64,000 nucleotides of DNA from an uncultured Bacteroidales bacterium (GTDB lineage Bacteria > Bacteroidota > Bacteroidia > Bacteroidales > VadinHA17): positions 269,609-333,608 of the forward strand of contig CAVXUP010000009.1 of NCBI GenBank assembly GCA_963765005.1. Reading direction: 5' to 3'. Both the position numbers and the translations under genes were made by a program. Below the pieces are notes generated by a model. It saw only the letters and a program-made list of their open reading frames with translations. It did no database searches and was not told the DNA's origin. Positions 26,566 through 57,500 of the stretch are shown here, piece after piece; the first letter of the stretch is position 1; every line of letters starts with the position of its first letter.

Positions 26566-26578
26566 GACACCCCCTCAT

Positions 26579-26845
26579 ACAACATCAATAAAAGGATCTT
26601 CTTTTAAACATGTAAGGGCGCAATATTTTCGCCTACAACATTAATGAAAAGGATCTTCTTTTAAACATGTAAGGGCGCAAAATTTTGCGCCCCTACAACA
26701 TTAATGAAAGGATCTTATGTAAAACATGTAAGGGCGCAATATTTTGCGCCCCTACAACATTAATGAAAGGATCTTATGTAAAACATGTAGGGGCGCAAAA
26801 TTTTGCGCCCCTACAACAATATTTAAAAGGATCTTCCTATCAATA
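26579..26845. repeat. Tandem array (4 full copies plus 1 partial) of a 56-60 bp unit, each carrying a GC-rich palindrome
   Basis: Units start at 26579, 26635, 26695, 26754 and 26813 (ACAACATTAATGAAAGGATCTTATGTAAAACATGTAGGGGCGCAAAATTTTGCGCCCCT). A perfect 24-bp palindrome aggggcgcaaaattttgcgcccct lies at 26789-26812. The array sits between convergent genes. Confidence 0.95.
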
Positions 26846-28639: not shown

Positions 28640-31600
28640 TTATAAACCAAAGGTGATACCGAACATGAACTGCTTCGGCGTTGGCCAGGCACCCTGATCA
28701 ACTCCCATATTAATACCGGCACCTGCAATTTCAGGATCAAGACCGGAATAGTTTGTAAGAGTAAACAGGTTGGAGCCCTGGAAATAAATCTGAACAGTAC
28801 TGAATTTGTTATTCAGAAGCCTGTTAATATCATAACCTACCCTGAAATTCTTCATCCTTAGGAAGGAACCATCTTCGAGGAAGGCTGTTGATGGCTGCTG
28901 GTGAGGTGTATCGTTGGAGTAAATAACCGGCATTGTTGCCTTGGAATTGTCTCCATTGAGGTACGGGCTGCCCCATGATTCATAAAGCCTTCTGTTACTC
29001 TTGCCTGATTCGAACTGAGTATAGTCGATAAAACGGCTAACATAGTTTACGATTTCGTTTCCGACACTTGAATAGAGAGTTGCAGACAGGAAAATTCCCT
29101 TGTAGTCGACATTGAATGAAAGACCAGCTGTGAAATCAGGGTGAGGTGATCCAATGTAAGTACGGTCCGCTGCATCGACCCATCCGTTTCCATCAACATC
29201 CTTGTATTTGTAATGTCCAAGGTCGTTATATGTACCAGTGGCTCCGAAGGCCTTTGGCCAATTATCAACCTCATCCTGCGTCTGGAAAATCCCTTCGACC
29301 TGGTATCCGAAGAATTCAGGGAAAGAGTGACCACTTTGAGTCCTGGTATAGATCATCTCACGATAGGTCGAACCTGCATAGAAGTCACCCAGGTTGTCGG
29401 TAAGTTTCACAATCTCATTTTTATAATGAGAGAATACAAGGTCAACACCCCAGTTGAGATCACCGTTCAATGAACTCTTGGCATAACCAAGGGTAATATC
29501 AAAACCGGTATTTTTCATCTCACCGATATTTATCGAAGGCTGTGATGCTGTTCCATAGATAAGAGGCAGCCTGTTTAGGATAAAGCATATCACTTGTAAC
29601 ACGCTGCCACAGGTCAATGTTCATTGTAAGACTCTTGAACAAAGTAGCATCTATACCAAAGTTTGTTGTTGCAGTGGTTTCCCATTTTACATCAGCGTTG
29701 CCGAATGTGGTCTGGGCGAATCCGGTTGTACCTGCTGTGCTGTTTGAACCGCTGACCGGGTAAAATGCAGTATTGAAGTTAATTGCATATTGTGAGTAGC
29801 TGTTGTAGTTACCCATGCGGTCGTTTCCGACCACTCCGTAACCTGCACGGATCTTCAATTCATCCAGCCAGCTTTTTGTAGAGGCCATGAAGTTCTCCTC
29901 TGAAATCCTCCATCCAAGGGAGACTGCAGGGAATACACCATACTTCTGGTTACCGAAACGGGAAGAACCATCACGGCGAATTACAGCCTCGACCATGTAT
30001 TTATCGGCATATGTATAGTTTATACGGCCAAAGATAGAGAACAGGCTATATTCACTGATTCCGCCTCCTGAGTTGTTGATTGAACGAAGACCTGTATTCA
30101 GGTTCATATAAGTAAGGTCAAGAATAGGATATTCTGATCTGTTGGCACCAATACTCTCTCCATTGCTTTCAAAAGCCTCGGTACCTGCAATTGCCTTGAG
30201 ATTATGATCACCTGTGATCAGAGAATAATCAATTGTATTTGTCCAGGTCCAGTTTGTTCCCCAGCCTGCGCCCTTTCCAAAATAATCATAAGTTCCTCTT
30301 TCCGCAGCAGCTACTTCAACAAAGTTGACATCCTGTGAGTTATACTGGTACTGGTTTATACCGACGCGTGTCTGAACAGATAAGCCTTTCATAAGGTTGA
30401 GTTTCAGATAAGCGTTTCCGGTAAGGTTGATCTGTTTTGTAAAATCATACTGGTTCTTGTCAAGAAGGAATACAGCGTTCTGAGCATTTCCCATACCGGA
30501 TGACCTAGATCCTCCATATGTGGTTCCTGAAATATCATATAGGGGAACCATGGTAGGAAGACGGTAGGTCCAGGAAACTATTGAACTTTCAGAGTTATCG
30601 CCCTGGTGTCCGTAATCATTGGTATAGTTACCACCGATATTGGTACCCAAATCGATCCACTTTGCAGGGGAAGTGTTGATGTTTGCACGGAAACTGTACC
30701 TGTCGAAACCTGTGTATTTAAAAACACCTTCGTCCTTGGTGTAGCCAAGAAGGAATGCATATGTTGTATTGGCACTGCCGCCTGTTACATCAATTGTATA
30801 CTCTTTAAACTGAGCATCACGCTGGGCTTCTTCCATCCAGTTTGTCCCTGGGCTAGATTTGGCAATAAGATAGGTGTCGGTACCATCAATGGTAGCCAGT
30901 TTATTGTCATATCTGGCAGGATCTACGAGCGGAGATCCTTCTGCAGTTTTTGTTGGGAATATATAGTCAGGAATAACAGGCTCTGATCCGGTTCCAAACT
31001 GAACATGATTATAAGTAAGGACAGGAGCTGCACCTACTGGATTTCTTTGCCAGGCCCTTAAATTTTTATTATAAAGGTTCTCTGTTTCAAGCCACAACAT
31101 GTCTCCCCACTCCTGGGTATTTAAAAGGTCATACTGGTTAGAATTCCTTGTGATACCCTGCCTGACGTTAACGGTCATGTTTACTTTCTGGTTTTTCTTA
31201 CCCGATTTTGTTGTTACAAGAACAACCCCGTTGGCAGCCCTGGCACCATAAATTGACTGGGCAGCAGCATCTTTAAGGATTGTGATTGATTCAACATCAT
31301 TTGGCGAATAGTTACCGCCGGGAATACCATCAACAACGAACAGCGGGTTGGCATCGTTGATTGTTGTCATACCACGGATCCTCAGGGTTGAGCCTTCACC
31401 GGGGGTATGCTGGTTCAGAACCGATACCCCTGCCACTTTACCCTGGAGACGCTGAACCGGGTTGGAAGCAGCACTTTCGGCAAGAGCAGCAGAATTAACA
31501 GTTGAAACTGCACCGGTAAGAGATTTCCTTGTCTGGGTTGAATAACCTACAACAACGATCTCATCAAGTGCGGTTTGTGTTTCAACAAGGGTTACATTAA

Positions 31601-31955
31601 TTAAGGTCTGCGTACCTACCGGAACGTCGACTGTGGTGTAACCGATAAATGAGAAGGTCAGCACTGAGTTGCCGGAGGTGACAGAAATAGCATATGAGCC
31701 GTTACCGTCGGTAATCTTCCCATTTGTTGTACCTTTTTCGATAATATTTACCCCGACAAGTGCGTTGCCTTGATTGTCAACAACTTTACCGGAAATATTT
31801 ATCTGCTGAAAGTCATCTGAAGAGGCAACACCTGCCGCTGTTGCGGTGAGTTGTGCTGTCCCTATCAATAAAAACAGAGAAAGGAGCCTCATCATGGTTT
31901 TGTGCCTGGTGAAGCACATCACTAACAAAGCTGCCTGCTTTAATTTCTTAGTCAT
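28640..31955 (-). pseudogene. SusC-family TonB-dependent receptor with a single frameshift near nt 29568-29571
   Basis: ORF 29520..31955 has CarbopepD_reg-like and plug motifs (ISGKVVDNQGNALVGVNI, IVVVGYSTQTRKSLTGAV, LRIRGMTT, PLFVVDGIPG, VESITILKDAAAQSIYGARAANGVVLVTTKSG). The barrel continues in ORF 28640..29617 (LPLIYGTASQPSINIGEMKNTGFD...ITFGL, terminal aromatic-type end). The likely true start is MMRLLSLFLL, near 31895. Confidence 0.8.
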
Positions 31956-32091: not shown

Positions 32092-32163
32092 TTAGGTTAG
32101 GTTAGAAAGTATAGGTTAAAGTCAAAAGTCAAAAGTCAAAAGTCAAAAGTATCAAAAGATCAA
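32092..32163. repeat. Heptamer arrays (AGGTTAG degenerate; GTCAAAA x4)
   Basis: ttaggttaggttagaaagtataggttaaa, then gtcaaaagtcaaaagtcaaaagtcaaaagtatcaaaag. A related aaggttagaaggttagaa lies at 31962-31979. Confidence 0.95.
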
Positions 32164-33154: not shown

Positions 33155-33266
33155 GTCACCGTCCGCCAGCCGGCGGACGGGTTCCTCGCAATGACGGTGA
33201 CTGTAAGTATCTGATTCCATTACGCCATTACGCCTTTACGCCATTACGCCTTTATGCCGTTGTGCC
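33155..33266. repeat. Nested GC hairpins followed by an octamer array (CCATTACG x6, degenerate)
   Basis: ccgtccgcc-agcc-ggcggacgg (33159-33180). gtcaccgtc (33155-63) is complementary to gacggtgac (33193-201). Then ccattacgccattacgcctttacgccattacgcctttatgccgttgtgcc (33217-33266). Confidence 0.9.
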
Positions 33267-33357
33267 TGAATTCTTCTGTGAAAAAATTAACACCAATCCA
33301 TTGCAGTTTCAAATGATTTCATATTTTTGCATAAAATGCCATAGACAAGTATCATTT

Positions 33358-33760
33358 ATGAATTTCAGTAAGACAGCTTCTTATTCACTAAACATTCTGA
33401 GCTATATGGCAATAAATGAAAATGTGCCTATGTCTGCTGCAGTTCTCCATGAAAAGCTTTCAATCCCCTACCCTTATCTCAGGCAGATACTAACTACTCT
33501 CGCAAAGAATGATTTTATCGGGAGCACAAGGGGCAGAGGCGGCGGTTTCAGATTCAGCAGGGACATAAGACACCATTTCCCTGGCCGATATCATTGATGC
33601 AACAGACGGACTTGAAAGCCTGAATAAATGTTTACTGGGATTCAGTGCTGTCCCGTTCAACAATGAGTGTTCAATGCACTCTGTCTGGGAATCAACACGA
33701 CAGAATATTGTTAAAGTACTGAAAGAGACATCACTGGCTGACATAGCAAAGAAGAGATAA
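33358..33760 (+). pseudogene. Rrf2/BadM-family transcriptional regulator with a frameshift near nt 33571-33575
   Basis: MNFSKTASYSLNILSYMAINENVPMSAAVLHEKLSIPYPYLRQILTTLAKNDFIGSTRGRGGGFRFSRDI is a typical Rrf2 wHTH. The expected continuation (ISLADIIDATDGLESLNKCLLGFSAVPFNNECSMHSVWESTRQNIVKVLKETSLADIAKKR) is open in the +1 frame to a stop at 33758-33760. Confidence 0.75.
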
Positions 33761-33821
33761 TTTTTTTATTTTTAATTGAGATAAACTTATATCATTTAAC
33801 ATTAACAAAAAAGGAGGTCCT

Positions 33822-34391
33822 ATGGTTGACTCAAAAATGGTCCTCACAGGACAAACACTGGCTTATACGCTTTACTGTATTGCCATGATATTGCTTGTCG
33901 CCTGGTTCAGTTTAAAGGTGACAACAGAAGGAAAGGGGAAATTAAAGGGTATTAAACCTGCATGGTTTTACACTCTTGTCGGCTTCCTGACAGTACTCGG
34001 TTTTTCACTCCACGTTATCACCTACAATACAATCCCGTGGGCTGAAATGGATCTGAAGCGGGCAGCTTATACCCCGGATAAGACTTTTGAAATAACTGTT
34101 AAGGATCATAAGTTCAACCTTCCCTCAGAAAAGCTTGTGATAAATGTGAACGACAAGGTTCTGTTTGACGTCACGTCAGAAGATCTGACCTACGGGTTCG
34201 GGTTATTCAGGAGCGATAACAGCATGATGTTCCAGATGCAGGTCGTACCAGGCCACAGGAATGATATTCTCTGGCTCTTCGATCGCGAAGGGGTCTACTC
34301 AATACGATCGACCGAGTACTCCGGACCAAAAGGAGTTGCTATGATCTTGCGTGATGTAGTACAGGTGGTTCCTGCAGGAGGAATAAAATAA
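33822..34391 (+). CDS. Haem-copper oxidase subunit II-like protein (2 TM plus cupredoxin fold) with a degenerate CuA site
   Basis: Two N-terminal TM helices. The beta-rich domain ends in IRSTEYSGPKGVAM, which aligns to the CuA motif C-x-E-x-C-G-x-x-H-x-x-M with both Cys changed to Ser and His changed to Gly. A strong AAGGAGG lies 4 nt upstream of the ATG. Confidence 0.65.
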   Translation: MVDSKMVLTGQTLAYTLYCIAMILLVAWFSLKVTTEGKGKLKGIKPAWFYTLVGFLTVLGFSLHVITYNTIPWAEMDLKRAAYTPDKTFEITVKDHKFNLPSEKLVINVNDKVLFDVTSEDLTYGFGLFRSDNSMMFQMQVVPGHRNDILWLFDREGVYSIRSTEYSGPKGVAMILRDVVQVVPAGGIK

Positions 34392-34418
34392 TCTCAAAAA
34401 CATTTAATAATCAGACTT

Positions 34419-36038
34419 ATGAGTTTTATAAAGACATTCATGAACGGTGAAGAGGGTCATTTCAAATCAGCTACTCTCACTCCAATGCAGAAACTTACAC
34501 TCCGGTTTGTTGTAGTAGGGCTTATCTATTTCGGATTCGTAGTGATAGAAGGCATGATTATGAGGCTATACCAGGTCACGCCTCTCTCTTACATAACTGA
34601 ACCTCAGTATTTTGCTATACTTACGGCTCATCCCCTTGTCGGAATCTTCGGATCAACATATTCAATTGTATGCGGCGCATTCCTGTTTCTGGTTCCTTTT
34701 CTGATGAAGAAACCACTGTGGAGCATCAAACTAGGCAACTGGACCTTCGTTCTTATCGCTGCAGGGACCTTTATTTTCTGGTTTGCAGGTTTTGTAAGTC
34801 ATTACTCACCGCTCTATACCCTCTATTGGCCCCTTCCAGCTGACTTCTCACAATTCAGTGTCTGGGGAGGTACCTTCTTTATAGTTGGTATTGCCATAGT
34901 CATGGTTGGAACTGCTTTTTTCATAATAAATATCTTTAAGACAATAACCTATACTCCTGAAGGATGGGACAAACAACCTGCAGGTGCATTGCTTAAATCA
35001 GCTCTTGGCATTACCGGATTTACAAATATCTTTTCTAAAGAGAACAAGGAACATCTTGTGCCTCTTCCTGTTGCCGCAGTGGCCAGGGGAAGTATCGACA
35101 TGGCATTGAATACAGCCACGATCCTATTTACTGGTGTACTGATACTTGTTTATATGGTTGGTTCTATTCTCGGATTCGACCTTAAGGAGACAGCAGTTGA
35201 TGCACTTCTGTACAAAAACTGGTTCTGGTGGGGACTTGACCTGATTGCCGATGGACTTGTACTGATCTTTGTGGCCGGGACCTGGTACCTTCTGGCAATG
35301 ATGATCACCGGAAAGCCACTCTTCATGCAGAATATTGCCAGAGCTGCCCTTCTTGTCGAACTTATAGTATCATGGACGGTCTGGTCACATCACCTTCTTT
35401 CTGATCAGGCGCAGCCAGGGGTACTTAAGGTCCTTTCAGGTGAACTTGTTACAGCATTTGAACTGATAACACAGGGGCTGGCCTTCTTCATTACTCTTAT
35501 TACCCTTTGGAGCGCCAGGCCTCTAAAAATGACAAATCCGCTGAAATTCCTGCTCGGCGGACTTCTTGGTTTTGCACTTGCGGTACCTGCAGGAATAATG
35601 CAGGCTGATGTTGGCCTGAACAGGATCCTTCACAATACCCAATGGGTTGTAGGACCGCATGTTCATGTTGCAGTTCTGGTTGGGCTTACAATGACACTCT
35701 ATTCCGCAATCTACCTTCTTTTCCCAATCTTGACGAATGGAGCTAAAGTCCATAGTCAGAAACTTGTAAATCTGCACTTCTGGTGCCATCTGACAGGCGG
35801 AATAGGCATGGGTGCGTTCATGGGAATGGCCGGACTAAACGGAATGCTGAGGCGGTCTATATACTATGAAGGCGAATTCAATCTCCTGATGATTCTGGCT
35901 GCGATCAGCGGAGCCTTAATCCTGATCGGTTTCCTTGCATTCTTCTATAATATAGTAATGAGTGTAGGCCTGAATGGTGTGATTGGCATTTTCACTCCAG
36001 CGAAACTTAAAACAAAAGACCTGGTTCCCGCTGAGTAA
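34419..36038 (+). CDS. Haem-copper oxidoreductase superfamily subunit I-like protein (12 or more TM) with an atypical active site (Asp replaces a CuB His; no cross-link Tyr)
   Basis: Conserved His: helix II ILTAHPLVG (H71), helix VII WSHHLL (H324/H325), helix X GPHVHVAV (H414/H416). The helix VI motif FWW-x-G-H-P-x-V-Y is replaced by FWWGLDLIAD (Asp codon at nt 35238-35240). Confidence 0.8.
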   Translation: MSFIKTFMNGEEGHFKSATLTPMQKLTLRFVVVGLIYFGFVVIEGMIMRLYQVTPLSYITEPQYFAILTAHPLVGIFGSTYSIVCGAFLFLVPFLMKKPLWSIKLGNWTFVLIAAGTFIFWFAGFVSHYSPLYTLYWPLPADFSQFSVWGGTFFIVGIAIVMVGTAFFIINIFKTITYTPEGWDKQPAGALLKSALGITGFTNIFSKENKEHLVPLPVAAVARGSIDMALNTATILFTGVLILVYMVGSILGFDLKETAVDALLYKNWFWWGLDLIADGLVLIFVAGTWYLLAMMITGKPLFMQNIARAALLVELIVSWTVWSHHLLSDQAQPGVLKVLSGELVTAFELITQGLAFFITLITLWSARPLKMTNPLKFLLGGLLGFALAVPAGIMQADVGLNRILHNTQWVVGPHVHVAVLVGLTMTLYSAIYLLFPILTNGAKVHSQKLVNLHFWCHLTGGIGMGAFMGMAGLNGMLRRSIYYEGEFNLLMILAAISGALILIGFLAFFYNIVMSVGLNGVIGIFTPAKLKTKDLVPAE

Positions 36039-36085: not shown

Positions 36086-36595
36086 ATGAAACATAAATAT
36101 ATGAATCCATACCTGGCAGGTACTATGCTGGGTATGGTTCTTTTACTGGCGATGTTCCTGTCAGGACGTGGCCTGGGTGCCAGCGGAGGACTAAAATATT
36201 GTGTGGTTTCGATAGTAGGAGCCGTTGACAGGCCTCACGCTGACAAATCAATTTACTACAGCAAATACTTTGAAGACGGGAAGAAACCATTAAAGAACTG
36301 GCTCACTCTGGAAATACTCGGAGTTGTTGCCGGAGGTTTTCTATCCGGAGCACTATCAAAAAGACTGAAGTTCCGGATCGAGAAATCGCCGGACATTTCA
36401 AATTCCAGACGATTGGTCTTCGCTTTTCTGGGGGGAGTCTTCTTCGTTTATGGGGCCCAGCTTGCAAGAGGCTGTACCAGCGGCGCCGCCCTTTCAGGAA
36501 TGGCAGTACTTTCCGTTGCGGGATTTGTCACAATGATGGCAATATTCGGTTCGGCTTATATTTTTGCGTGGTTCTTTCGTAAAAACTGGATTTGA
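36086..36595 (+). CDS. YeeE/YedE-family sulfur-compound transporter half (PF04143-like)
   Basis: 4 TM. GRGLGASGG and ARGCTSGAALSGMA motifs (conserved Cys in the G-C-x-x-G loop). Confidence 0.8.
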   Translation: MKHKYMNPYLAGTMLGMVLLLAMFLSGRGLGASGGLKYCVVSIVGAVDRPHADKSIYYSKYFEDGKKPLKNWLTLEILGVVAGGFLSGALSKRLKFRIEKSPDISNSRRLVFAFLGGVFFVYGAQLARGCTSGAALSGMAVLSVAGFVTMMAIFGSAYIFAWFFRKNWI

Positions 36596-36596
36596 A

Positions 36597-36697
36597 GAAG
36601 GCGGTAAATGCGTAAAGGCGGTAAATGCTGTAAAGGCGGTAAAAGGAGCCGCGGTGTTAATTGCCTTATAAAGCCCTTAAAGCCTTTAAAGCTTTTT
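36597..36697. repeat. Degenerate tandem repeats (GGCGGTAAA-type arm, then CCTTTAAAG-type arm)
   Basis: gaaggcggtaaatgcgtaaaggcggtaaatgctgtaaaggcggtaaaagg ... ccttataaagcccttaaagcctttaaagc. Confidence 0.9.
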
Positions 36698-36747
36698 AAA
36701 TCATCTATGGCTGTTGAATTTATAAATGATTAAACTCTTATAACAAC

Positions 36748-37350
36748 ATGGGACCAATTTCATCACTGATAAACATGCCTGAGTGGCTCGATCTGCTGAT
36801 TGCATTATTCATAGGCATCGGTTTCGGTTTTGCCCTTGAGCAGGCAGGATTCTCCTCGAGCCGGAAGCTTGCAGGAATGTTCTATGGTTATGATACGACT
36901 GTGATTAAGGTATTCTTCACAGCAGCTATAGTAGCCCTTATAGGATCGCAGATACTCAGCTTCCTGGGTCTTCTTAACCTTAACCAGGTGTTTGTTAATG
37001 AATTCTATGTTACTGCTTCAATTGTCGGAGGAGTGATAATGGGAGCTGGTTTTATAATGGGTGGTTTCTGTCCGGGAACAGGGCTGAGCGCTTTGTCGAT
37101 AGGCAAAATTGATGCAATGGTTTTCTTCGGCGGAGGTCTTACAGGCGCATTCCTTTTTGCAGAAACCTATCCATATATCGAAAAAATAGCAAACAGTTCC
37201 TATAAAGGACCTGTTAAGATCGACGAAGCACTCGGGTTGTCAACCGGACTGTTCATTCTTCTTCTTATTGTTGCGGCAGTTATAATGTTCTGGATTGCAG
37301 AGCTTGCTGAGAAACGGTTCGCACGGCCTGACATTACAAATGAAATCTAA
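36748..37350 (+). CDS. YeeE/YedE-family sulfur-compound transporter, second half
   Basis: 5-6 TM. GFALEQAGFSS and GGFCPGTGLSALS motifs. Confidence 0.8.
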   Translation: MGPISSLINMPEWLDLLIALFIGIGFGFALEQAGFSSSRKLAGMFYGYDTTVIKVFFTAAIVALIGSQILSFLGLLNLNQVFVNEFYVTASIVGGVIMGAGFIMGGFCPGTGLSALSIGKIDAMVFFGGGLTGAFLFAETYPYIEKIANSSYKGPVKIDEALGLSTGLFILLLIVAAVIMFWIAELAEKRFARPDITNEI

Positions 37351-37972
37351 TATCCTCACTATGAATCCCAGGACTGCAATATCGGCAATTCTACTGAGTT
37401 TCGGACTTATACTTGCCCTGCTCCCACTTACAGCCAACCGCTCTTTTAGCGGAAAACCTCAGACAGTACTTGAAAAATCAGGAGCTGAAGACAGATATCT
37501 TACTGCCGATCAGGTGGCCCGGTTTATTATCGCTGAAGACACTACAATTCAGATAATCGACCTGAGATCACCTGAAGAGTATATGGCGATGAGCCTTCCG
37601 GGGTCATTGAATCTTCCATACGATCAGATGCTGACGAAGGACCCTGCTTATATATTCGACAAAAAAGGGATCAAAACGATATTGTATTCTAATGGTGACC
37701 TGAAAGCCAGCTATGCTCTTGCGATTGCAGAAGGATTGAATTATGATAATGTCTATATCATGAAAGGCGGTCTCAATGAGTGGTTTAAAACAATAATAAA
37801 CAGCAGCTTCACCGGAGAGAAGATCTCTGCAAGGGAGAATGCGCTATTCGAGACAAGAACCAGGGCCAGAAGGCTTTTCAATGAACTTAACAGTCTGCCT
37901 GACAGTCTTAAGATAAAATATCTTGCTGCTAAACAGGGTGAAGCTAAGAAGCTGGATGGGGGATGTGAATAA
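37340..37972 (+). CDS. Membrane-anchored rhodanese-like domain protein with the active-site Cys replaced by Ser
   Basis: ATG 37340 (MKSNIL..., TM anchor AISAILLSFGLILALLPL) overlaps the upstream gene by 11 nt. Rhodanese fold IQIIDLRSPEEYMAMSLPGSLNLP...ILYSNGDLKASYALAIAEGLNYDNVYIMKGGLNEW. Confidence 0.75.
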   Translation: MKSNILTMNPRTAISAILLSFGLILALLPLTANRSFSGKPQTVLEKSGAEDRYLTADQVARFIIAEDTTIQIIDLRSPEEYMAMSLPGSLNLPYDQMLTKDPAYIFDKKGIKTILYSNGDLKASYALAIAEGLNYDNVYIMKGGLNEWFKTIINSSFTGEKISARENALFETRTRARRLFNELNSLPDSLKIKYLAAKQGEAKKLDGGCE

Positions 37973-37977
37973 GAAGA

Positions 37978-38070
37978 GAATTTGAAAATTTGAAAATTTG
38001 AAAATTTGAAAATGGCTTAAAAATTTTTAAGCTTTGAGTCGTGAGTCGTGAGTCGATTGCCATGAGTCAA
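37978..38070. repeat. Octamer array (TTTGAAAA x4.5), an 18-bp AT palindrome, and a heptamer array (GAGTCGT x3)
   Basis: gaatttgaaaatttgaaaatttgaaaatttgaaaat (37978-38013). gcttaaaaatttttaagc (38015-38032). tttgagtcgtgagtcgtgagtcg...atgagtcaaaa. Confidence 0.95.
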
Positions 38071-38083
38071 AATTTATGCAGTT

Positions 38084-38551
38084 ATGGAAATAGTTAAGAA
38101 ATATAAATGGGTCATTATAGTAGTACTGCCGGTGCTGATACTCGTTGTTATCAGGTCGACAGGCATTTACCGCTTCAGGAGTGATGCCAATAAATGGGCA
38201 GAACCTTCGGTAAACAGTTCAAATATCATCAGCAGTGAACAATTAGCAGAGATAAAGGGAGATGCGATTATAATTAACCTTGACGGAGAAAAAAGAGATT
38301 TCAGATCAGAGGGTTTTAAATCAATAACAATTTCTGAAGACTCAATCCTCATCAAAGCAAACCTGAGAATAATCAAAGGTCATTCTGGTCCGGCGCTGCT
38401 CTATTCAGAAGATCTCAGCAAGCAGGCCCGTGTATGGATGGTACTGAGCCAGCTGGGCAATAAAAACATCTTTATCCTAACTGATAAACAGGATGATGAG
38501 GTCATGAAATACAAATTCCGGCCCGACACCATTGTCAGACCGGAATTGTAA
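38084..38551 (+). CDS. Membrane-anchored rhodanese-like protein, probably catalytically inactive (Ser at the Cys position)
   Basis: N-terminal TM WVIIVVLPVLILVVI. AIIINLDGEK...GPALLYSEDLSKQARVWMVLSQLGNKNIFILTD resembles a rhodanese core. Confidence 0.55.
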   Translation: MEIVKKYKWVIIVVLPVLILVVIRSTGIYRFRSDANKWAEPSVNSSNIISSEQLAEIKGDAIIINLDGEKRDFRSEGFKSITISEDSILIKANLRIIKGHSGPALLYSEDLSKQARVWMVLSQLGNKNIFILTDKQDDEVMKYKFRPDTIVRPEL

Positions 38552-38602
38552 AAACGCCATGCATGGCGTTTTCGTCGTACAAACGCCATGCATGGCGTTT
38601 TT
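38551..38602. terminator. Two tandem copies of a palindromic hairpin between convergent genes (bidirectional terminator candidates)
   Basis: aaaacgccatgcatggcgtttt (38551-38572) and aaacgccatgcatggcgttttt (38581-38602). Each has an 8-9 bp GC-containing stem flanked by A and T runs. Confidence 0.7.
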
Positions 38603-38607
38603 ACAAA

Positions 38608-39675
38608 TCATTTTACCACCGTAAAATCATTGACGTCAGCATAGGTGAACGGCAGCCACGAAAGAGCTTCCCTTTGTTTGATCATCTTATCGTGCATGAA
38701 GCTGTTATTACCGTATCTGAGGGTTCTGGCATCATAACCAAAGAGTCTCAGGTAGGCAGTGGCAAATCCAGAGTTATGGCCTGTTCCGCAGTACACAACA
38801 ACTATCTTATCAGACGGTATCGATGCCATCTCCTCTGTAAATCCAAGCGTAGATTCCGGTTTATATCTGATTGCCCCGGGAATATGTCCATCTTCATATT
38901 TGTCCTTTCTCTCGAGGTTGATTATGAAATATTTCCCCGGATCAGCAAACACTTCTTCAGCAGTTACAAGTATATTAGCAGTACCTTCTTCAAAGAGTTT
39001 CTTAAACCTGGCAGATCCTATCTCCTCTCCTGTTGTCAGTCCGGTTTTAAGGTCAGGCATTGAAACAGCAGCAGGTCTTTCGTTCACTTTGGTTTCGAGC
39101 TTTGCTTCAAACTGCCCCGTGACTCCTTTCATCCAGCCTTCATCGGCATATTTCTTATTCCAGGAGCTCATTCCCCAACGCATGGCAAATACATTACCGT
39201 AACCCATCAATCGCAACAAGCTTGTGGTATAGCTTGATACCTGTCCATCCTCACAAACCATGATAATCTTTTCGAACTCAAAGGGTTTTATACCAGATTC
39301 AAAATAGCCGGGAAGTTCTTCAAACTTCCGGTTAACTGCTCCTTTAATATGACCTGACTTAAACCTATCAGCAGATCTGAGGTCAATCACGAGAATATTG
39401 GTTCCAAGGCTCTGGTTAACAATTGACGGCTTAATCAGTGAAGGGAAAACAAGGCTGTTTACATAATCACCATTTTCAACCAGATCCTTTAGCAAAAGAG
39501 CTGTTTCATTACCAATGACAACAGGTTTTTTTGAAACAGGAGCAGGCGTAGCTGCCTGCTCCATATTCTTCTCTCCACTGTTTCCTGCACATCCTCCCGA
39601 TATTAAAACCGCAATGACGAAAACAGCAGAAATGCTATGACGGAATTTTTTCATTAATTGAAATGTTTTTTCCAT
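38608..39675 (-). CDS. Lipoprotein with tandem rhodanese domains (sulfurtransferase)
   Basis: Lipobox LISGGCAGN. Domain 1: ILVIDLRSADRFKSGHIKGAVN...IIMVCEDGQVSS. Domain 2: FIINLERKDKYEDGHIPGAIRY...VVVYCGTGHNSGFATAYL (canonical C-x5-S/R-like active loop). Confidence 0.85.
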   Translation of the reverse strand: MEKTFQLMKKFRHSISAVFVIAVLISGGCAGNSGEKNMEQAATPAPVSKKPVVIGNETALLLKDLVENGDYVNSLVFPSLIKPSIVNQSLGTNILVIDLRSADRFKSGHIKGAVNRKFEELPGYFESGIKPFEFEKIIMVCEDGQVSSYTTSLLRLMGYGNVFAMRWGMSSWNKKYADEGWMKGVTGQFEAKLETKVNERPAAVSMPDLKTGLTTGEEIGSARFKKLFEEGTANILVTAEEVFADPGKYFIINLERKDKYEDGHIPGAIRYKPESTLGFTEEMASIPSDKIVVVYCGTGHNSGFATAYLRLFGYDARTLRYGNNSFMHDKMIKQREALSWLPFTYADVNDFTVVK

Positions 39676-40850: not shown

Positions 40851-41024
40851 GTGGCGCAACGGCGCAACGGCTCAGAGGCGCAATGGCTAATGGCCAAATT
40901 GTTCCGCTAAGCGAAGTTGCAAACTTCGCCGAGCATCATTAATTGCATAGCTGCGCCGTTGTGCCGTTATGCCGCTACGCCGCTTTGCCGTTGTGCCGTT
41001 GTGCCATTGCGCCGTTGCGCCATT
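40851..41024. repeat. Inverted arms of octamer tandem repeats (GGCGCAAC-type vs GTTGCGCC/GTTGTGCC-type) around a central hairpin
   Basis: Left arm: gtggcgcaacggcgcaacggctcagaggcgcaatggctaatggcc. Centre: gcgaagtt-gca-aacttcgc. Right arm: tgcgccgttgtgccgttatgccgctacgccgctttgccgttgtgccgttgtgccattgcgccgttgcgccatt. Confidence 0.95.
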
Positions 41025-42766: not shown

Positions 42767-42872
42767 TTGTCTTGCGGTCGTGCGGTCGTGTTGTATTACA
42801 ATCATGAAGTCGGCTGCAAGACCTCAGGACTGCAGGACCGCACGACCGCAGGACCGCAGGACCGCAAGACAA
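42767..42872. repeat. Inverted heptamer-repeat arms (TGCGGTC / GACCGCA) that exactly fill the gap between convergent genes
   Basis: ttgtcttgcggtcgtgcggtcgtg (42767-42790) and gcaagacctcaggactgcaggaccgcacgaccgcaggaccgcaggaccgcaagacaa (42816-42872). The outermost 13 nt, ttgtcttgcggtc / gaccgcaagacaa, are perfectly complementary. Confidence 0.95.
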
Positions 42873-47534: not shown

Positions 47535-48377
47535 ATGAATGATCTGAATCTTAAAGGCAAAGTTGCCGTTATAACAGGGGGAGCAGGGATCATCTGCTCA
47601 ACAATGGCAAAATCTCTTGCCGCCCAGGGTGTAAAAACCGTTATACTTGATCTGAACAAGGAGGCCGCTCAGGAAGTTGCCAGAGAGATTGAGAAGGAAT
47701 TTAAAACCCAATCAATAGGAGTCTCCGCCAGCGTCCTTGACAAGGCGTCACTTGAGGCTGCAAGATCTGAGATAAATGAGATCCTCGGTCCAGTTGATAT
47801 CCTTGTAAATGGAGCAGGTGGCAATTCACCTGCTGCCACAACAAAGGTTGAAAAGATGGAGGGTACCGAAGATGAAAATCCGGCTGACACCTTTTTCGGA
47901 CTTCAGATTGAAGGCTTTGACAAGGTCTTTGATCTTAATTTCAAGGGAACCTTGCTGCCTACAATGGTTTTTGCATCTGATATGGTTATGAAGAAATCAG
48001 GGGTGATAATCAACATCTCATCGATGAACTCTTACAGGCCTCTCACAAAAATTGCAGCCTATTCTGCAGCCAAAGCTGCTGTTAATAATTTCACACAATG
48101 GCTGGCTGTGCACTTCTCCAAAACAGGGATAAGGGTAAATGCAATTGCCCCTGGGTTTCTCCTTACAAATCAGAACAGATTCCTCCTTATTGATGAGAAA
48201 ACCGGAGGGCTGACTCCAAGAGGTAAAAAAATCATAAACGGAACCCCGATGGAAAGGTATTGTCTCCCGGAAGAGTTAACAGGAACACTCATTTACCTTG
48301 TCTCCGACCTTTCGAAATTTGTCACAGGAATTGTAATACCTGTCGACGGGGGGTTTAGTGCATATAGTGGCGTATAG
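47535..48377 (+). CDS. SDR oxidoreductase, YjmF/UxuB-like (fructuronate/mannonate oxidoreductase candidate)
   Basis: GKVAVITGGAGIICSTMAKSLA, NGAGGN, and S...YSAAKAAV (Y-x3-K). Located directly after uxaC. Confidence 0.7.
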   Translation: MNDLNLKGKVAVITGGAGIICSTMAKSLAAQGVKTVILDLNKEAAQEVAREIEKEFKTQSIGVSASVLDKASLEAARSEINEILGPVDILVNGAGGNSPAATTKVEKMEGTEDENPADTFFGLQIEGFDKVFDLNFKGTLLPTMVFASDMVMKKSGVIINISSMNSYRPLTKIAAYSAAKAAVNNFTQWLAVHFSKTGIRVNAIAPGFLLTNQNRFLLIDEKTGGLTPRGKKIINGTPMERYCLPEELTGTLIYLVSDLSKFVTGIVIPVDGGFSAYSGV

Positions 48378-48505
48378 GAGTAGCGGCGTAGCGGCGTAAT
48401 GGCGTAATGGCGTAATGGCTTAGTGACGTAATGGAATATTGGTAAAAGTATTATAAGTAAGGATTCTGAATAAAAACACGAAACCCGAAACCCGAAACCC
48501 GAAAC
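48378..48505. repeat. Octamer array (GGCGTAAT/GGCGTAGC), then a heptamer array (CCCGAAA x3.5)
   Basis: gagtagcggcgtagcggcgtaatggcgtaatggcgtaatggcttagtgacgtaatgg ... cacgaaacccgaaacccgaaacccgaaac. Confidence 0.95.
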
Positions 48506-49900: not shown

Positions 49901-50782
49901 ATGAACCCACACGATCAATTATTAAACCTGAAACCCGAAAAGGAGTTTTTCATCGGAATTGATTCCGATGGTTGTGCATTTGATACTATGGAGATAAAGC
50001 AGAAAGAATGTTTCTGCCCAAACTTCATAAAATATTTCAAAATGCAGCCTGTATCAAAATATGCCCGCGAAACATGGGAATTTGTAAACCTCTATTCAAC
50101 AAACAGGGGCTGCAATAGATTTCTTGCTGTAAATGAAACACTTAAGCTATTGTCTACCCGTCCGGAAATCAAAGCGCGCAACTTTTCGGTCCCTGATCCT
50201 GCTTCTCTTATTGAATGGACAAAGAAGGAGACTAAACTGGGAAATCCTACTCTTAAAACCTATGCTGCAGAGATAAAAGATCCCTTCATCTCCCAGACCC
50301 TCGAATGGTCGCTCAGGGTAAATGAGGATATCGAAAAGATGGTATTCGGGATAACTCCTTTCCCGTTTGTAAGAGAGTGTCTTGAGAAAATGAAGCCGAA
50401 AGCAGATGCAATGGTCGTTTCGCAAACTCCTTATGATGCTCTGAAAAGAGAGTGGGAAGAGAATAAAATTGATCATCATCTGAGAATGATAGCCGGTCAG
50501 GAACATGGTACAAAAACCGAGCACCTTAAATATGCAGCGAAAGGAAAATATCCCGATGAGAAAATTCTTATGATTGGAGATGCAAACGGCGACCTGAAAG
50601 CCGCAAAATCAAACGGAGTGCTCTTCTTCCCTATAAATCCGGGTAAAGAAGAGGCATCGTGGGAAAGATTATATAAAGAAGGTATGGACAGGTTCTTTGC
50701 CGGCACATACAAGGGTGCTTATGAGGATGAGCTGATAAGGGAATTTGAGACCTATCTGCCGGAGCATCCACACTGGAGATAG
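49901..50782 (+). CDS. HAD-superfamily hydrolase (phosphatase-like)
   Basis: Motif I FFIGIDSDGCAFDT (DxD); motif IV MIGDANGDLKAA. The 20 upstream codons in the tracked ORF translate the repeat array. Confidence 0.75.
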   Translation: MNPHDQLLNLKPEKEFFIGIDSDGCAFDTMEIKQKECFCPNFIKYFKMQPVSKYARETWEFVNLYSTNRGCNRFLAVNETLKLLSTRPEIKARNFSVPDPASLIEWTKKETKLGNPTLKTYAAEIKDPFISQTLEWSLRVNEDIEKMVFGITPFPFVRECLEKMKPKADAMVVSQTPYDALKREWEENKIDHHLRMIAGQEHGTKTEHLKYAAKGKYPDEKILMIGDANGDLKAAKSNGVLFFPINPGKEEASWERLYKEGMDRFFAGTYKGAYEDELIREFETYLPEHPHWR

Positions 50783-50856
50783 CAGGGTGCAGGGTGCAAG
50801 GTGCAAGGTGCAGGGTGCAGGGTGCAAGGTGCAAGGTGTAAGGGAAGAAAGGAAGG
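50783..50856. repeat. Heptamer array (GGTGCAG/GGTGCAA x9)
   Basis: cagggtgcagggtgcaaggtgcaaggtgcagggtgcagggtgcaaggtgcaaggtgtaagggaagaaaggaagg begins 1 nt after the stop. Confidence 0.95.
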
Positions 50857-52176: not shown

Positions 52177-53166
52177 ATGATAAACTGGGGTATAATAGGC
52201 TGCGGCAATGTCACCGAGGTAAAGAGCGGTCCTGCATTTAACAAGATCAGGGATTCCAGACTTATTGCCGTAATGCGAAGAGACCGGCAGATGGCTGAGG
52301 ATTATGCCAGCAGGCATAATGTTCCAAAAGTTTACTCCGATGCATCAGACCTTATAAATGACAAGGATATTGACGCGGTTTATATCGCGACACCTCCGGG
52401 AAGTCATGCCGGATATGCAATTGAAGTTATCAAAGCACGAAAACCTGTTTATATCGAGAAACCGATGGCTGCCAGTTATGCTGAATGCCAGATGATAAAC
52501 CTTGCGGCGGAGAAGCATAATGTGCCGGTCTTCGTTGCCTACTACAGAAGAGCTCTTCCCGGATTCCTGAAGGTAAAAGAGCTTATCGAGGAAGGTAAGA
52601 TCGGGAAGGTGCGCTTTGTTCAGATCGAGCTGTTCAAACCAGCTTCAATTGAAGAAAAATCCGGAAATCCTTCGTGGCGTGTTAATCCCGAAATTGCAGG
52701 AGGGGGACATTTTTTCGATCTGGCATCTCATCAACTGGATTATCTTGATTATCTTTTCGGACCGATTGTAAAAACAGCATCGGTGGTACTTAACCAGGCC
52801 GGACTTTATGAAGCAGAAGACATGGTTGCTGCCAGCTTTATATTTGAAAATGGTGTAGCAGGATCAGGGATATGGTGCTTCAGCGTTTCGCCTGAATTGC
52901 GAAGAGACACAATCGAGATTATCGGGGAAAAGGGAGCAATCAGTTTTTCCACATTCAGTTTTGAATCAATAAAGGTTACAACTGAAACAGGGATACATGA
53001 ATATGAGAACGAACGGCCTGAGCACGTGCAATACTACCTGATTGAAAAAATCGTTCAGGAACTTGAAGGCAAAGGGAAATCACCGAGTACCGGGATAACT
53101 GCTGCAAGAACAAGCAGGATAATGGATGAAATTGTGAAAGAATATTACAGGGGAAAAAGACAGTAG
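52177..53166 (+). CDS. Gfo/Idh/MocA-family NAD(P)-dependent oxidoreductase
   Basis: INWGIIGCGNV Rossmann start, AVYIATPPGSHAGYA, VYIEKPMA. Confidence 0.9.
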   Translation: MINWGIIGCGNVTEVKSGPAFNKIRDSRLIAVMRRDRQMAEDYASRHNVPKVYSDASDLINDKDIDAVYIATPPGSHAGYAIEVIKARKPVYIEKPMAASYAECQMINLAAEKHNVPVFVAYYRRALPGFLKVKELIEEGKIGKVRFVQIELFKPASIEEKSGNPSWRVNPEIAGGGHFFDLASHQLDYLDYLFGPIVKTASVVLNQAGLYEAEDMVAASFIFENGVAGSGIWCFSVSPELRRDTIEIIGEKGAISFSTFSFESIKVTTETGIHEYENERPEHVQYYLIEKIVQELEGKGKSPSTGITAARTSRIMDEIVKEYYRGKRQ

Positions 53167-53168
53167 AC

Positions 53169-53240
53169 TGAAGACCGAAGACCGAAGACCGAAGACAGAA
53201 GTCAGAAGTAAGAAGTAGGAAGTAAAAAGTAAGAAGACAA
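53169..53240. repeat. Graded heptamer array (GAAGACC x3 decaying via GAAGACA, GAAGTCA, GAAGTAA...)
   Basis: tgaagaccgaagaccgaagaccgaagacagaagtcagaagtaagaagtaggaagtaaaaagtaagaagacaaaa. The unit is the reverse complement of the unit at 49820. Confidence 0.95.
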
Positions 53241-53264
53241 AATAGAAATCATAAATTATTAATT

Positions 53265-57405: not shown

Positions 57406-57500
57406 CCAATTACCCAAAACATCACCAATGACCCCCAATTACCAATGACCAATTACCAATCACCAATCACCAATTACCATTACCAATCATAAATCACAAT
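57406..57500. repeat. Heptamer array (CCAATNA: TACCAAT/CACCAAT/GACCAAT, about 12 units)
   Basis: ccaattacccaaaacatcaccaatgacccccaattaccaatgaccaattaccaatcaccaatcaccaattaccattaccaatcataaatcacaat. Confidence 0.95.

Follow-up and report, generated by a model that had tools for sequence, protein, structure and literature searches.

A two-gene module with the features of a gNOR-type haem-copper oxidoreductase in an uncultured Bacteroidales bacterium

The contig of an uncultured Bacteroidales bacterium carries, within the stretch of 64,000 nucleotides analysed here (hereafter the window), two genes that read as subunits II and I of a haem-copper oxidase (HCO), and they raise the question of whether such a pair can still encode an oxygen reductase and, if not, what its reaction could be. 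Both open reading frames were confirmed at the coordinates in Table 1. The 539-residue subunit I matches Pfam COX1 (E=1.5e-55), and its AF2 model (pLDDT 80, pTM 0.84, with low confidence exactly at residues 323-331, around H324/H325) superposes in Foldseek on subunit I of bo3, aa3 and bovine oxidase with a TM-score of about 0.75.

Table 1. Features of the module and its flanks, in positions of the window.
Feature	Position	Strand	Evidence
CRP/FNR-type palindromic site TGTGAAAAAATTAACA upstream of the operon promoter	33277..33292	+	Exact match in the window
Candidate -7 promoter element TATTTTTG, fits TAnnTTTG	33322..33329	+	Sequence reading
20-bp inverted repeat ATGCCATAGACAAGTATCAT, candidate Rrf2 operator overlapping the transcription start region	33336..33355	+	Sole match in the 64-kb window
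Rrf2-family regulator gene, disrupted	33358..33760	+	Frame reading; intact orthologues
Possible degenerate second operator TGAGATAAACTTATATCA before the subunit II gene	33777..33794	+	Sequence reading; low confidence
Subunit II, two TM helices and cupredoxin domain without CuA (Y124, S163, E165, S167, G171, M174)	33822..34391	+	Pfam, TIGR02866, ba3 alignment, AF2/Foldseek
Subunit I, 12-TM haem-copper-oxidase fold	34419..36038	+	Pfam, conservation, AF2/Foldseek, profile matches
E44, invariant TM1 carboxylate	34548..34550	+	Profile alignment to 6koc_A; alignment of relatives
H71, low-spin haem ligand	34629..34631	+	Invariant in relatives
D274, at the helix-VI CuB/FeB histidine position	35238..35240	+	MAFFT, phmmer, conservation
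D278, at the cross-link Tyr position of A/B oxidases	35250..35252	+	MAFFT, conservation
H324-H325, remaining two ligands of the non-haem metal	35388..35393	+	Invariant in alignments
T345, E348, T351, invariant polar stripe in mid helix VIII	35451..35471	+	Conservation, AF2, profile alignment
H414 (high-spin haem) and H416 (low-spin haem)	35658..35666	+	Invariant; aligned with the H-F-H motif
Two half-size YeeE/YedE (Sulf_transp) genes, neighbours outside the core	36086..37350	+	Family profiles

The haem ligands and the HH pair named in the initial annotation (H71, H414/H416 and H324/H325) are present at the codon level, and its reading of helix VI, with an Asp at the CuB His position and another where the B family has its Tyr, was recovered by alignment. 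Using MAFFT against B-type sequences with the motif WFFGHPVVY, and with the conserved K-N-x-x-W as gapless anchor, D274 aligns with the CuB His, and D278 with the Tyr; D274 also falls on His in the phmmer alignment to the cbb3 subunit CcoN. The short helix VI stretch is shifted by indels in the hmmsearch and hhalign alignments, and therefore the ungapped MAFFT anchor carries the assignment of both residues; the hhalign comparison with B-type sequences, with 100% probability overall and an indel-ridden motif, was left out of the residue mapping. The contrary outcome that the initial annotation had named, a His at the CuB position together with an active-site Tyr, was not seen, and helix VI (residues 262-297) has zero His whatever the alignment. 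In ba3 numbering, the changes are H233 to D274 and Y237 to D278. The three-His CuB site and the His-Tyr cross-link of the A/B-family O2 reductases are thus absent, with D274 and D278 instead, and the alignments show a predicted binuclear pocket lined by H324, H325, D274 and D278 next to two intact haem sites.

Two further elements of subunit I concern possible routes of electrons and protons. In a profile alignment, E44 is paired with the Asp of the F-R-G-G-V-D-G motif in subunit I of the aa3-600 quinol oxidase (6koc_A). This Asp (D74 of aa3-600, D75 of bo3) belongs to the quinol site, and E44 may have a role at such a site. T345, in turn, aligns with the conserved Thr of the A-type T-x-x-x-x-x-P-T-G-x-K motif, presumably the K-channel region, and the T345/E348/T351 stripe may take part in proton delivery.

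Subunit II scores slightly below the cut-off of Pfam COX2 (20.6 bits) and matches TIGR02866 CoxB at 7.6e-7. Its AF2 model (pLDDT 87) has ba3 subunit II as the top Foldseek matches, and subunit II of Thermus thermophilus ba3 is the closest solved structure both by sequence (subunit II/CuA domain, E 4e-4 to 3e-3) and by fold (2cua_A, rmsd 2.3 Å over 101 columns). Mapping of the ba3 CuA ligands onto it gives H114 to Y124, C149 to S163, C153 to S167, H157 to G171 and M160 to M174; four of the five side-chain ligands are gone, M174 being kept, and the CuA centre of the A/B cytochrome c oxidases (two Cys, two His and one Met) is absent, both Cys being Ser. The Gly at the H157 equivalent is found within the window's clade. 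The motifs T-Y-G-F-G and I/V-R-S-T-E-Y-S-G-P hardly vary in the family as a whole. In six loci, a separate ORF of 34-46 residues lies upstream of a 140-residue subunit II, and in both loci translated this small ORF shows homology to the TM1 that subunit II has in its fused form. As in ba3, a small IIa-like TM peptide accompanies the enzyme, separate in some clades of the family and fused in others, and such a split peptide is a B-family hallmark. In contrast to the family, ba3 has the CuB-His3 site, the His-Tyr cross-link and CuA, whose Cys and His ligands are lost here.

Relatives were found in at least 552 GTDB species genomes, of which the best 80 were covered by the contig scan across genomes, the protein searches being based on the best 120-150 matches listed. 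The core of the module across loci is the subunit II gene followed by the subunit I gene, and it is carried mostly by fermentative Bacteroidales, Ignavibacteria, Chloroflexota and archaeal MAGs. Across 33 bacterial and archaeal relatives, down to 40% identity, neither D274 nor D278 varies; therefore, the swap is not due to chance. Indeed, relatives ranging from Bacteroidales to Thermoprotei and Methanomethylicia share these two residues without exception, along with H324, H325, E348, E44 and the haem ligands, and to judge from these alignments the active-site and haem ligands, E348 and E44 are under strong purifying selection. That the pair is a decayed, non-functional oxidase remnant could be suspected from the adjoining Rrf2 gene, a pseudogene in the window, and from a SusC-like gene that also looks split. 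Nevertheless, neither ORF is truncated, identity to the best 120 relatives listed is 85-100%, and about 100 positions are invariant over the 33 bacterial and archaeal relatives, so that we regard decay as extremely improbable.

The nearest outgroups outside the family in phmmer, among the matches listed, are subunit I sequences with the B-type GHPVVY motif, at no more than 30% identity. The family profile scored A-type PDB chains best (1e-25), followed by ba3 (1e-17) and, only at 1e-10, cbb3; yet an affinity to ba3 and the B-type is indicated by the phmmer outgroups, by subunit II and by the IIa-like peptide. None of the 48 PDB chains matched by this profile at E<0.01 is named as a nitric oxide reductase, and by sequence affinity the nearest outgroups are A/B-type oxidases, not cNOR/qNOR. 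This affinity would favour an unusual O2-scavenging quinol oxidase working without CuB-His3 and without the His-Tyr cofactor, as its fold and nearest relatives are those of O2 reductases, haem o synthase belongs to the operon in some lineages and annotation pipelines name the protein cytochrome c oxidase subunit I. However, these database names are automatic, and all characterised O2-reducing HCOs have three His and a cross-linked Tyr (PMC11214002), both of which are replaced in all members of the family. We therefore consider O2 scavenging very unlikely, and the view of the initial annotation that this is not a canonical O2 reductase stands. Among such quinol oxidases, E. coli bo3 and B. subtilis aa3-600 also combine a CuA-less cupredoxin subunit II with a quinol-site Asp at the position of E44, quinol being the likely donor here as well, and a haem o synthase gene is linked in some lineages; they differ in being true A-family O2 reductases with CuB-His3 and Tyr.

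A family named gNOR (norGH) was reportedly proposed in 2008, by Hemp and Gennis and by Sievert et al., as quinol-dependent NO reductases. According to Murali et al. 2024 (PMC11214002), gNOR is defined by the replacement of one active-site His by Asp and by a cupredoxin subunit II from which the CuA ligands are missing, and a table in PMC8756737 lists the residue at the Tyr position as 'gNOR D' and 'cNOR E', with Glu for cNOR/qNOR. All of the defining features were found in the module of the window, namely the HCO fold, both sets of haem ligands, the His-to-Asp change, the Asp in place of Tyr and the CuA-less cupredoxin, and no feature conflicting with gNOR was found. Therefore, the two genes fit a gNOR-type member of the haem-copper oxidoreductase superfamily, a placement made by defining features and not by a tree. 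The likeness to gNOR suggested by the initial annotation, with the His-to-Asp replacement, thus agrees with the published definition; its statement that the family lacks biochemical characterisation also proved correct, the literature searched to 2026 reporting neither gNOR biochemistry nor NO reductase activity. A possible relationship to B-type oxidases, the occurrence in Bacteria and Archaea, the sulfidic or anoxic habitats and a candidate quinol-site residue are shared with gNOR as described. In contrast, the His-to-Glu haem-ligand change reported for gNOR in the FIND preprint is absent here, with H71, H414 and H416 intact. The family is therefore an already described one, and what is new is the proposed control by Rrf2 and CRP/FNR with a candidate operator, the recurring hemerythrin, CDF, M24 and haem o synthase neighbours, and hosts without adjoining denitrification genes such as nir and nos in the loci inspected.

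With the established NO reductases cNOR and qNOR (NorB, NorZ), the module shares the proposed chemistry, the lack of the Tyr, a possible quinol donor as in qNOR and a carboxylate at the position His+4 (Glu there according to PMC8756737, D278 here). In place of the cupredoxin partner, those enzymes have either NorC, a haem c subunit, or an N-terminal domain fused to the protein. FeB ligation by three His and a Glu, affinity to the C family and a NorC or fused domain were all lacking here, where only two His are available.

On these grounds, we propose that the enzyme is probably a reductase that detoxifies NO with electrons from quinol and holds a non-haem iron in a His2Asp2 site. It would descend from A/B-type oxygen reductases whose active site was rebuilt, so that the His2Asp2 pocket would bind non-haem iron (FeB) beside the high-spin haem, although the identity of the metal is purely inferred. 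The high-spin haem could be haem o, since three lineages have a haem o synthase fused into the operon; this gene lies directly 3' of the module in loci L089 and L093, where it scores above the TIGR01473 cut-off. Menaquinol may feed electrons directly into the low-spin haem, since CuA and a cytochrome c subunit are both lacking and the invariant E44 occupies the position of the quinol-site Asp. The reaction would be 2 NO + 2 e- + 2 H+ -> N2O + H2O, serving fermentative anaerobes in NO detoxification and not in denitrification. A precedent is offered by a haem/non-haem mimic with a 2-His-1-carboxylate site, which reduces NO according to the passage of PMC11214002 that cites it.

The gene neighbourhood bears on the substrate. 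A block of YeeE halves and rhodanese begins 47 bp past the subunit I gene, and a terminator scan gave no convincing site between the two. In favour of NO detoxification, hemerythrin-domain genes are found near the module in four of nine distant loci and in nine Bacteroidales loci (one of them weakly similar to YtfE, which repairs NO-stress damage), and three of the nine distant loci have a FieF/MamB-like CDF transporter. An M24 peptidase recurs in distant lineages, as do the hemerythrin, the FieF-like transporter and the haem o synthase. Against it, no NorQ/NorD-like metal chaperone adjoins the module in the loci inspected. The substrate could also be other than NO, such as H2O2 or an organic peroxide, N2O, hydroxylamine or, in sulfidic habitats, a sulfur compound: gNOR has been reported mainly from sulfidic environments (PMC11214002), several of our loci come from sulfidic-cave MAGs, and the hemerythrin, Rrf2 and CRP/FNR neighbours suit oxidative as much as nitrosative stress. 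However, the YeeE/rhodanese block adjoins the module in only 13-16 close relatives, in two orientations. Most loci lack it, among them that of a copy with 88% identity in a complete genome, and a general link to sulfur transport was rejected for this reason. The loci contain no conserved peroxidase or sulfur-enzyme partner, and the His2-carboxylate site with haem has its NO-reducing precedent in the mimic cited above. A substrate other than NO is therefore unlikely in our judgement. A broader and quite doubtful possibility is that the family has no part in denitrification and that the module forms the catalytic core of an unrecognised stress system of strict anaerobes in Bacteria and Archaea. 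Here, a menaquinol-fed haem o/His2Asp2 reductase would act on an O2-derived or other substrate (e.g. peroxide, with NO incidental) and would be matured or serviced by the hemerythrin, FieF-like CDF and M24 proteins, and the former CuA loop, which is strictly conserved (R-S-T-E-Y-S-G-P, plus His/Met in most clades), would be a new functional site in subunit II.

Should the substrate be NO, the enzyme could also be a respiratory reductase in a complete or partial denitrification chain, perhaps conserving energy through the polar stripe of helix VIII, whose T345, E348 and T351 are invariant in the middle of the membrane. The literature, including PMC11214002, files gNOR under denitrification, locus L085 has a NarI-type gene at a distance of about 6 kb from the module, and in L089 a molybdopterin oxidoreductase with NrfD is located upstream of it. 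Nevertheless, no nirK, nirS, nosZ or nap/nar catalytic genes adjoin the module in 83 Bacteroidota-type and nine distant loci. The surroundings in the window consist, as read from translations, of polysaccharide-use genes (an SusD-family gene and an adjoining SusC-like receptor) and uronate/pectin-type genes, with no respiratory genes around the module, and the regulators are of stress-sensor types. For these reasons, we give little credence to a respiratory role.

The regulatory region is in line with the detoxification reading. In 52 of 83 loci, the module is immediately preceded by an Rrf2-family gene in the same orientation, with 50 such genes counted at no more than 600 nt from the subunit II gene (a tblastn count gave 48 of 82). 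Intact orthologues have about 133 residues and a conserved C-x6-C-x5-C-x-H with three Cys. In the window, the gene undergoes a +1 frame switch near 33570-33578, its N-terminal part ending at the stop codon 33595-33597 and the C-terminal part resuming in another frame, and the second cluster Cys is a Val; owing to these two defects of the repressor, the operon may be derepressed in this organism. In carriers with an intact Rrf2, damage to the Fe-S cluster of this repressor would induce the operon, and a CRP/FNR-type factor would act as second input.

Compared with NsrR and IscR, the family Rrf2 shares the fold, the three clustered Cys, a palindromic operator starting with an ATGY half-site and the position upstream of a putative NO-detoxifying operon, while its Cys spacing (C-x6-C-x5-C) and the pseudogene state of the window copy set it apart. 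An intact orthologue stays below every NCBIfam equivalog cut-off, with 50 bits against 182 for NsrR and 68 against 207 for IscR, and its operator has ATGMTA half-sites with an 8-nt spacer, compared with 5 nt in the published NsrR consensus gATGyAT-N5-ATrCATc. The naming of this regulator as NsrR is therefore unsupported, as both its score and its operator spacing differ.

In 36 of 70 loci, the palindrome TGMTAY-N6-RTAKCA stands just 5' of the start codon of Rrf2, and in about 12 loci it recurs before the subunit II gene. The possible second copy in the window has a fitting right half-site and two mismatches in the left half, relative to the copies before subunit II in L012, L017, L024, L030 and L031. 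The candidate promoter element of Table 1 fits the Bacteroidetes -7 element. Further upstream, 21 of 70 related loci have the 16-mer TGTGAAAAAATTAACA (with up to three mismatches) at the corresponding position; where Rrf2 is absent, a similar 16-mer sits immediately 5' of the subunit II gene, and CRP/FNR regulator genes adjoin the module in three of the nine distant loci. An assignment of this site to HcpR2 was discarded, as the consensus GTAACnnnnGTTAC differs.

Together, these observations bear on a family that is the sole haem-copper family to have given up one of the three universally conserved active-site His, and databases mislead for all its carriers by annotating the protein as "cbb3-type cytochrome c oxidase subunit I". 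Experiments can build on a compact module of two genes, on its strong conservation and on a defined regulator with a candidate operator. If the family reduces NO, hundreds of fermentative anaerobes from sediments, digesters and sulfidic waters, among them Bacteroidales, Ignavibacteria, Chloroflexota and Thermoproteota, would be unrecognised sources of N2O or sinks of NO.

ORF calling recovered two adjacent forward-strand genes, for subunits II and I, exactly where the initial annotation had placed them. Subunit I is clearly a COX1-family protein (Pfam, E=1.5e-55) but falls well short of all NCBIfam equivalog cut-offs. Its AlphaFold model (input of 33 relatives; pLDDT 80, pTM 0.84) matches subunit I of the bo3, aa3 and bovine oxidases at TM ~0.75. 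The translation contains every annotated haem ligand (H71, H414 and H416) as well as the H324/H325 pair. The annotation had also placed Asp at the CuB His and B-family Tyr positions of helix VI, and both replacements hold. In a MAFFT alignment with the nearest non-family sequences (B-type, WFFGHPVVY), K266-N267-x-x-W270 aligns without gaps, which pairs D274 with the His and D278 with the Tyr; phmmer against cbb3 CcoN likewise pairs D274 with the CuB His. Indels shift this short stretch in hmmsearch against aa3-600 and in hhalign against a B-type profile, and the one-to-one mapping of D274 and D278 therefore rests on the ungapped anchor. Whatever the alignment, helix VI (residues 262-297 of the model) contains no His. 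All of 33 relatives, with identities down to 40% and with Thermoprotei, Methanomethylicia, Anaerolineae, Dehalococcoidia and Actinobacteria MAGs among them, share Y-K-N-x-(F/Y)-W-W-G-L-D-x-x-A-D-G as an invariant motif. From the relatives' alignment and the model, helix VIII carries an invariant mid-membrane polar stripe (T345/E348/T351). E44 falls on the quinol-site Asp of the aa3-600 and bo3 quinol oxidases.

Among solved structures, Thermus ba3 subunit II and its CuA domain come closest to subunit II in both sequence and fold; the AF2 model (pLDDT 87) superposes on 2cua_A with an rmsd of 2.3 Å over 101 columns. The CuA ligands H114, C149, C153, H157 and M160 map to Y124, S163, S167, G171 and M174, bearing out the proposed CuA-less cupredoxin. 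T-Y-G-F-G and R-S-T-E-Y-S-G-P are near-invariant family-wide, and the His157 equivalent is retained beyond the Bacteroidales-type clade. Six loci in Chloroflexota-type and related clades have a 140-aa subunit II with a separate ORF of 34-46 aa ahead of it, the same arrangement as ba3 subunit IIa; in the two translated, this ORF is homologous to TM helix 1 of the long subunit II. In the window, the subunit II start codon has AAGGAGG, a strong Shine-Dalgarno-like sequence, 4 nt on its 5' side.

gNOR, a proposed NO reductase family, was described as the first haem-copper oxidoreductase family with an active-site His replaced, by Asp (Murali et al., 2024, PMC11214002). In that account its subunit II is a cupredoxin without the CuA ligands, the enzyme may oxidise quinol, and the family favours sulfidic habitats. 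Its Tyr position is D (PMC8756737) and its genes are norGH (PMC8906906). Judged against these descriptions, the module has, at the sequence level, every defining feature of gNOR, and the gNOR-like interpretation was right. No report of gNOR biochemistry was found in the literature to 2026, as the annotation had supposed. The family is already described, and the module adds one member and some new genomic context.

Subunit I has 3417 relatives below 1e-10 (the top 120 of the matches listed all at least 85% identical), and at least 552 of 185,579 GTDB species genomes encode a relative. Among the matches listed from a search of 1.84 billion representatives clustered at 50% identity, full-length family members number just two (73% and 47% identity), followed by a gap and then B-type sequences at ≤30%. 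The family profile matches A-type chains (1e-25 to 1e-19), ba3 (1e-17) and cbb3 (1e-10), and none of its 48 matches at E<0.01 is named nitric oxide reductase. Pipelines call family members (P0020, P0029, P0031, P0354 and others) "cbb3-type cytochrome c oxidase subunit I" or "cytochrome c oxidase subunit 1"; these names are misleading, since His and Tyr are missing and the partner is CuA-less. Subunits I 77-81% identical to the window's occur in MAGs labelled Acidobacteriota, Gemmatimonadota, Ignavibacteriaceae, Chlorobiaceae, Aminicenantes and Spirochaetes (loci L041, L047, L050, L063, L074, L075, L077, L080 and L082), which suggests recent horizontal transfer or mis-binning.

Across 83 Bacteroidota-type loci, wide conservation is confined to two neighbours: the subunit II gene, found in every complete locus, and an Rrf2 gene, which lies immediately upstream in the same orientation in 52. 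The window's sulfur-trafficking block begins 47 bp 3' of subunit I, with no terminator-like site found between; just 13-16 close relatives have it next to the module, where it occurs in two orientations, and a complete genome with an 88%-identical copy lacks it at that site. Downstream of the module, nine Bacteroidales loci have cupin, DUF438-hemerythrin-PAS and DUF1858-DUF2249 genes. Some Bacteroidales MAGs carry two Rrf2-subunit II-subunit I copies (JAXLTU01, L007 and L032; JADKBK01, L021 and L034), in JAXLTU01 one beside the cupin/hemerythrin-PAS/DUF1858 genes and the other beside the YeeE/rhodanese block. Nine distant loci have nearby a PepQ-like M24 peptidase (five), hemerythrin (four), a FieF-like CDF transporter (three) or a CRP/FNR regulator (three), and haem o synthase directly downstream (three, two above the TIGR01473 cut-off). 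The same five genes (small ferredoxin, hemerythrin, M24 peptidase, FeS_assembly_P and COXG/SRPBCC) flank the module in two archaeal classes (L083, 2885-5538; L088, 8233-10884), upstream in one and downstream in the other. Neither nir or nos genes nor a NorQ/NorD-, Cox11- or Sco-like metal chaperone adjoins the module in any locus inspected.

The family loci's Rrf2 proteins contain C-x6-C-x5-C-x-H and reach no named equivalog cut-off. Ahead of Rrf2, 36 of 70 loci have a palindrome of the form TGMTAY-N6-RTAKCA, which also precedes subunit II in about 12; a further ~60 nt upstream, 21 of 70 have a CRP/FNR-like 16-mer, and at Rrf2-less loci this 16-mer lies immediately 5' of subunit II. A second window copy (TGTGAAATTATTAACA, one mismatch) may be due to chance, as 2 of 100 shuffles gave at least three matches. 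In the window, Rrf2 is disrupted by a +1 frame switch (~33570-33578) with a premature stop (33595-33597), and Val stands in for the second of three conserved cluster Cys. Orthologues at other loci are intact, and the disruption could be genuine, making this a pseudogene, or could stem from misassembly. On the minus strand, a SusC-like receptor gene (28640-31955) is seemingly divided between two ORFs that overlap (29520-31955 and 28640-29617). This may reflect another frameshift in the window and is relevant to judging whether a sequencing error produced the one in Rrf2.

Features of the window (tandem arrays are examples with a 7-8 bp period)
Feature	Position	Strand	Remark
CRP/FNR-like 16-mer	33277-33292		upstream of palindrome
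TGMTAY-N6-RTAKCA-type palindrome	33336-33355		upstream of Rrf2
Rrf2 gene	33358-33760		broken
AAGGAGG	33811-33817		
Subunit II ORF	33822-34391	+	189 aa
Subunit I ORF	34419-36038	+	539 aa, adjoins subunit II
Asp274 codon	35238-35240		
Asp278 codon	35250-35252		
Sulfur-trafficking block	36086-39675		two half-size YeeE/YedE genes, membrane-anchored rhodanese, unassigned 155-aa ORF, two-rhodanese lipoprotein (-)
Second CRP/FNR-like 16-mer	48080-48095	-	within ORF 47535-48377
59-bp repeat	26578-26835		4.4 copies, 91% matches
Tandem array	32118-32163		
Tandem array	33217-33258		
Tandem array	36598-36643		
Tandem array	37979-38013		
Tandem array	40955-41021		
Tandem array	42816-42870		
Tandem array	48365-48434		
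Tandem array	50782-50843		
Tandem array	53157-53242		
Tandem array	57435-57489		

Short tandem arrays (4-9 copies, differing units) are found in a large share of the window's intergenic regions, one of them just 5' of the operon's CRP-like site; similar arrays lie upstream of the operon at L020 and L043. The 59-bp repeat, 3' of a SusD-family gene, contains a GC-rich hairpin-like core (GGGCGCAAAATTTTGCGCCCC).

The pocket of H324, H325, D274 and D278 matches the three-His-plus-Glu FeB site of cNOR position by position, with one His replaced by a carboxylate, and iron is therefore favoured as its metal. Together, the pocket, the E44 alignment, the helix VIII stripe, the regulators of stress type and the absence of denitrification genes beside the module point to our best reading, in which we infer both chemistry and metal: the module would be a quinol-fed, NO-detoxifying reductase.
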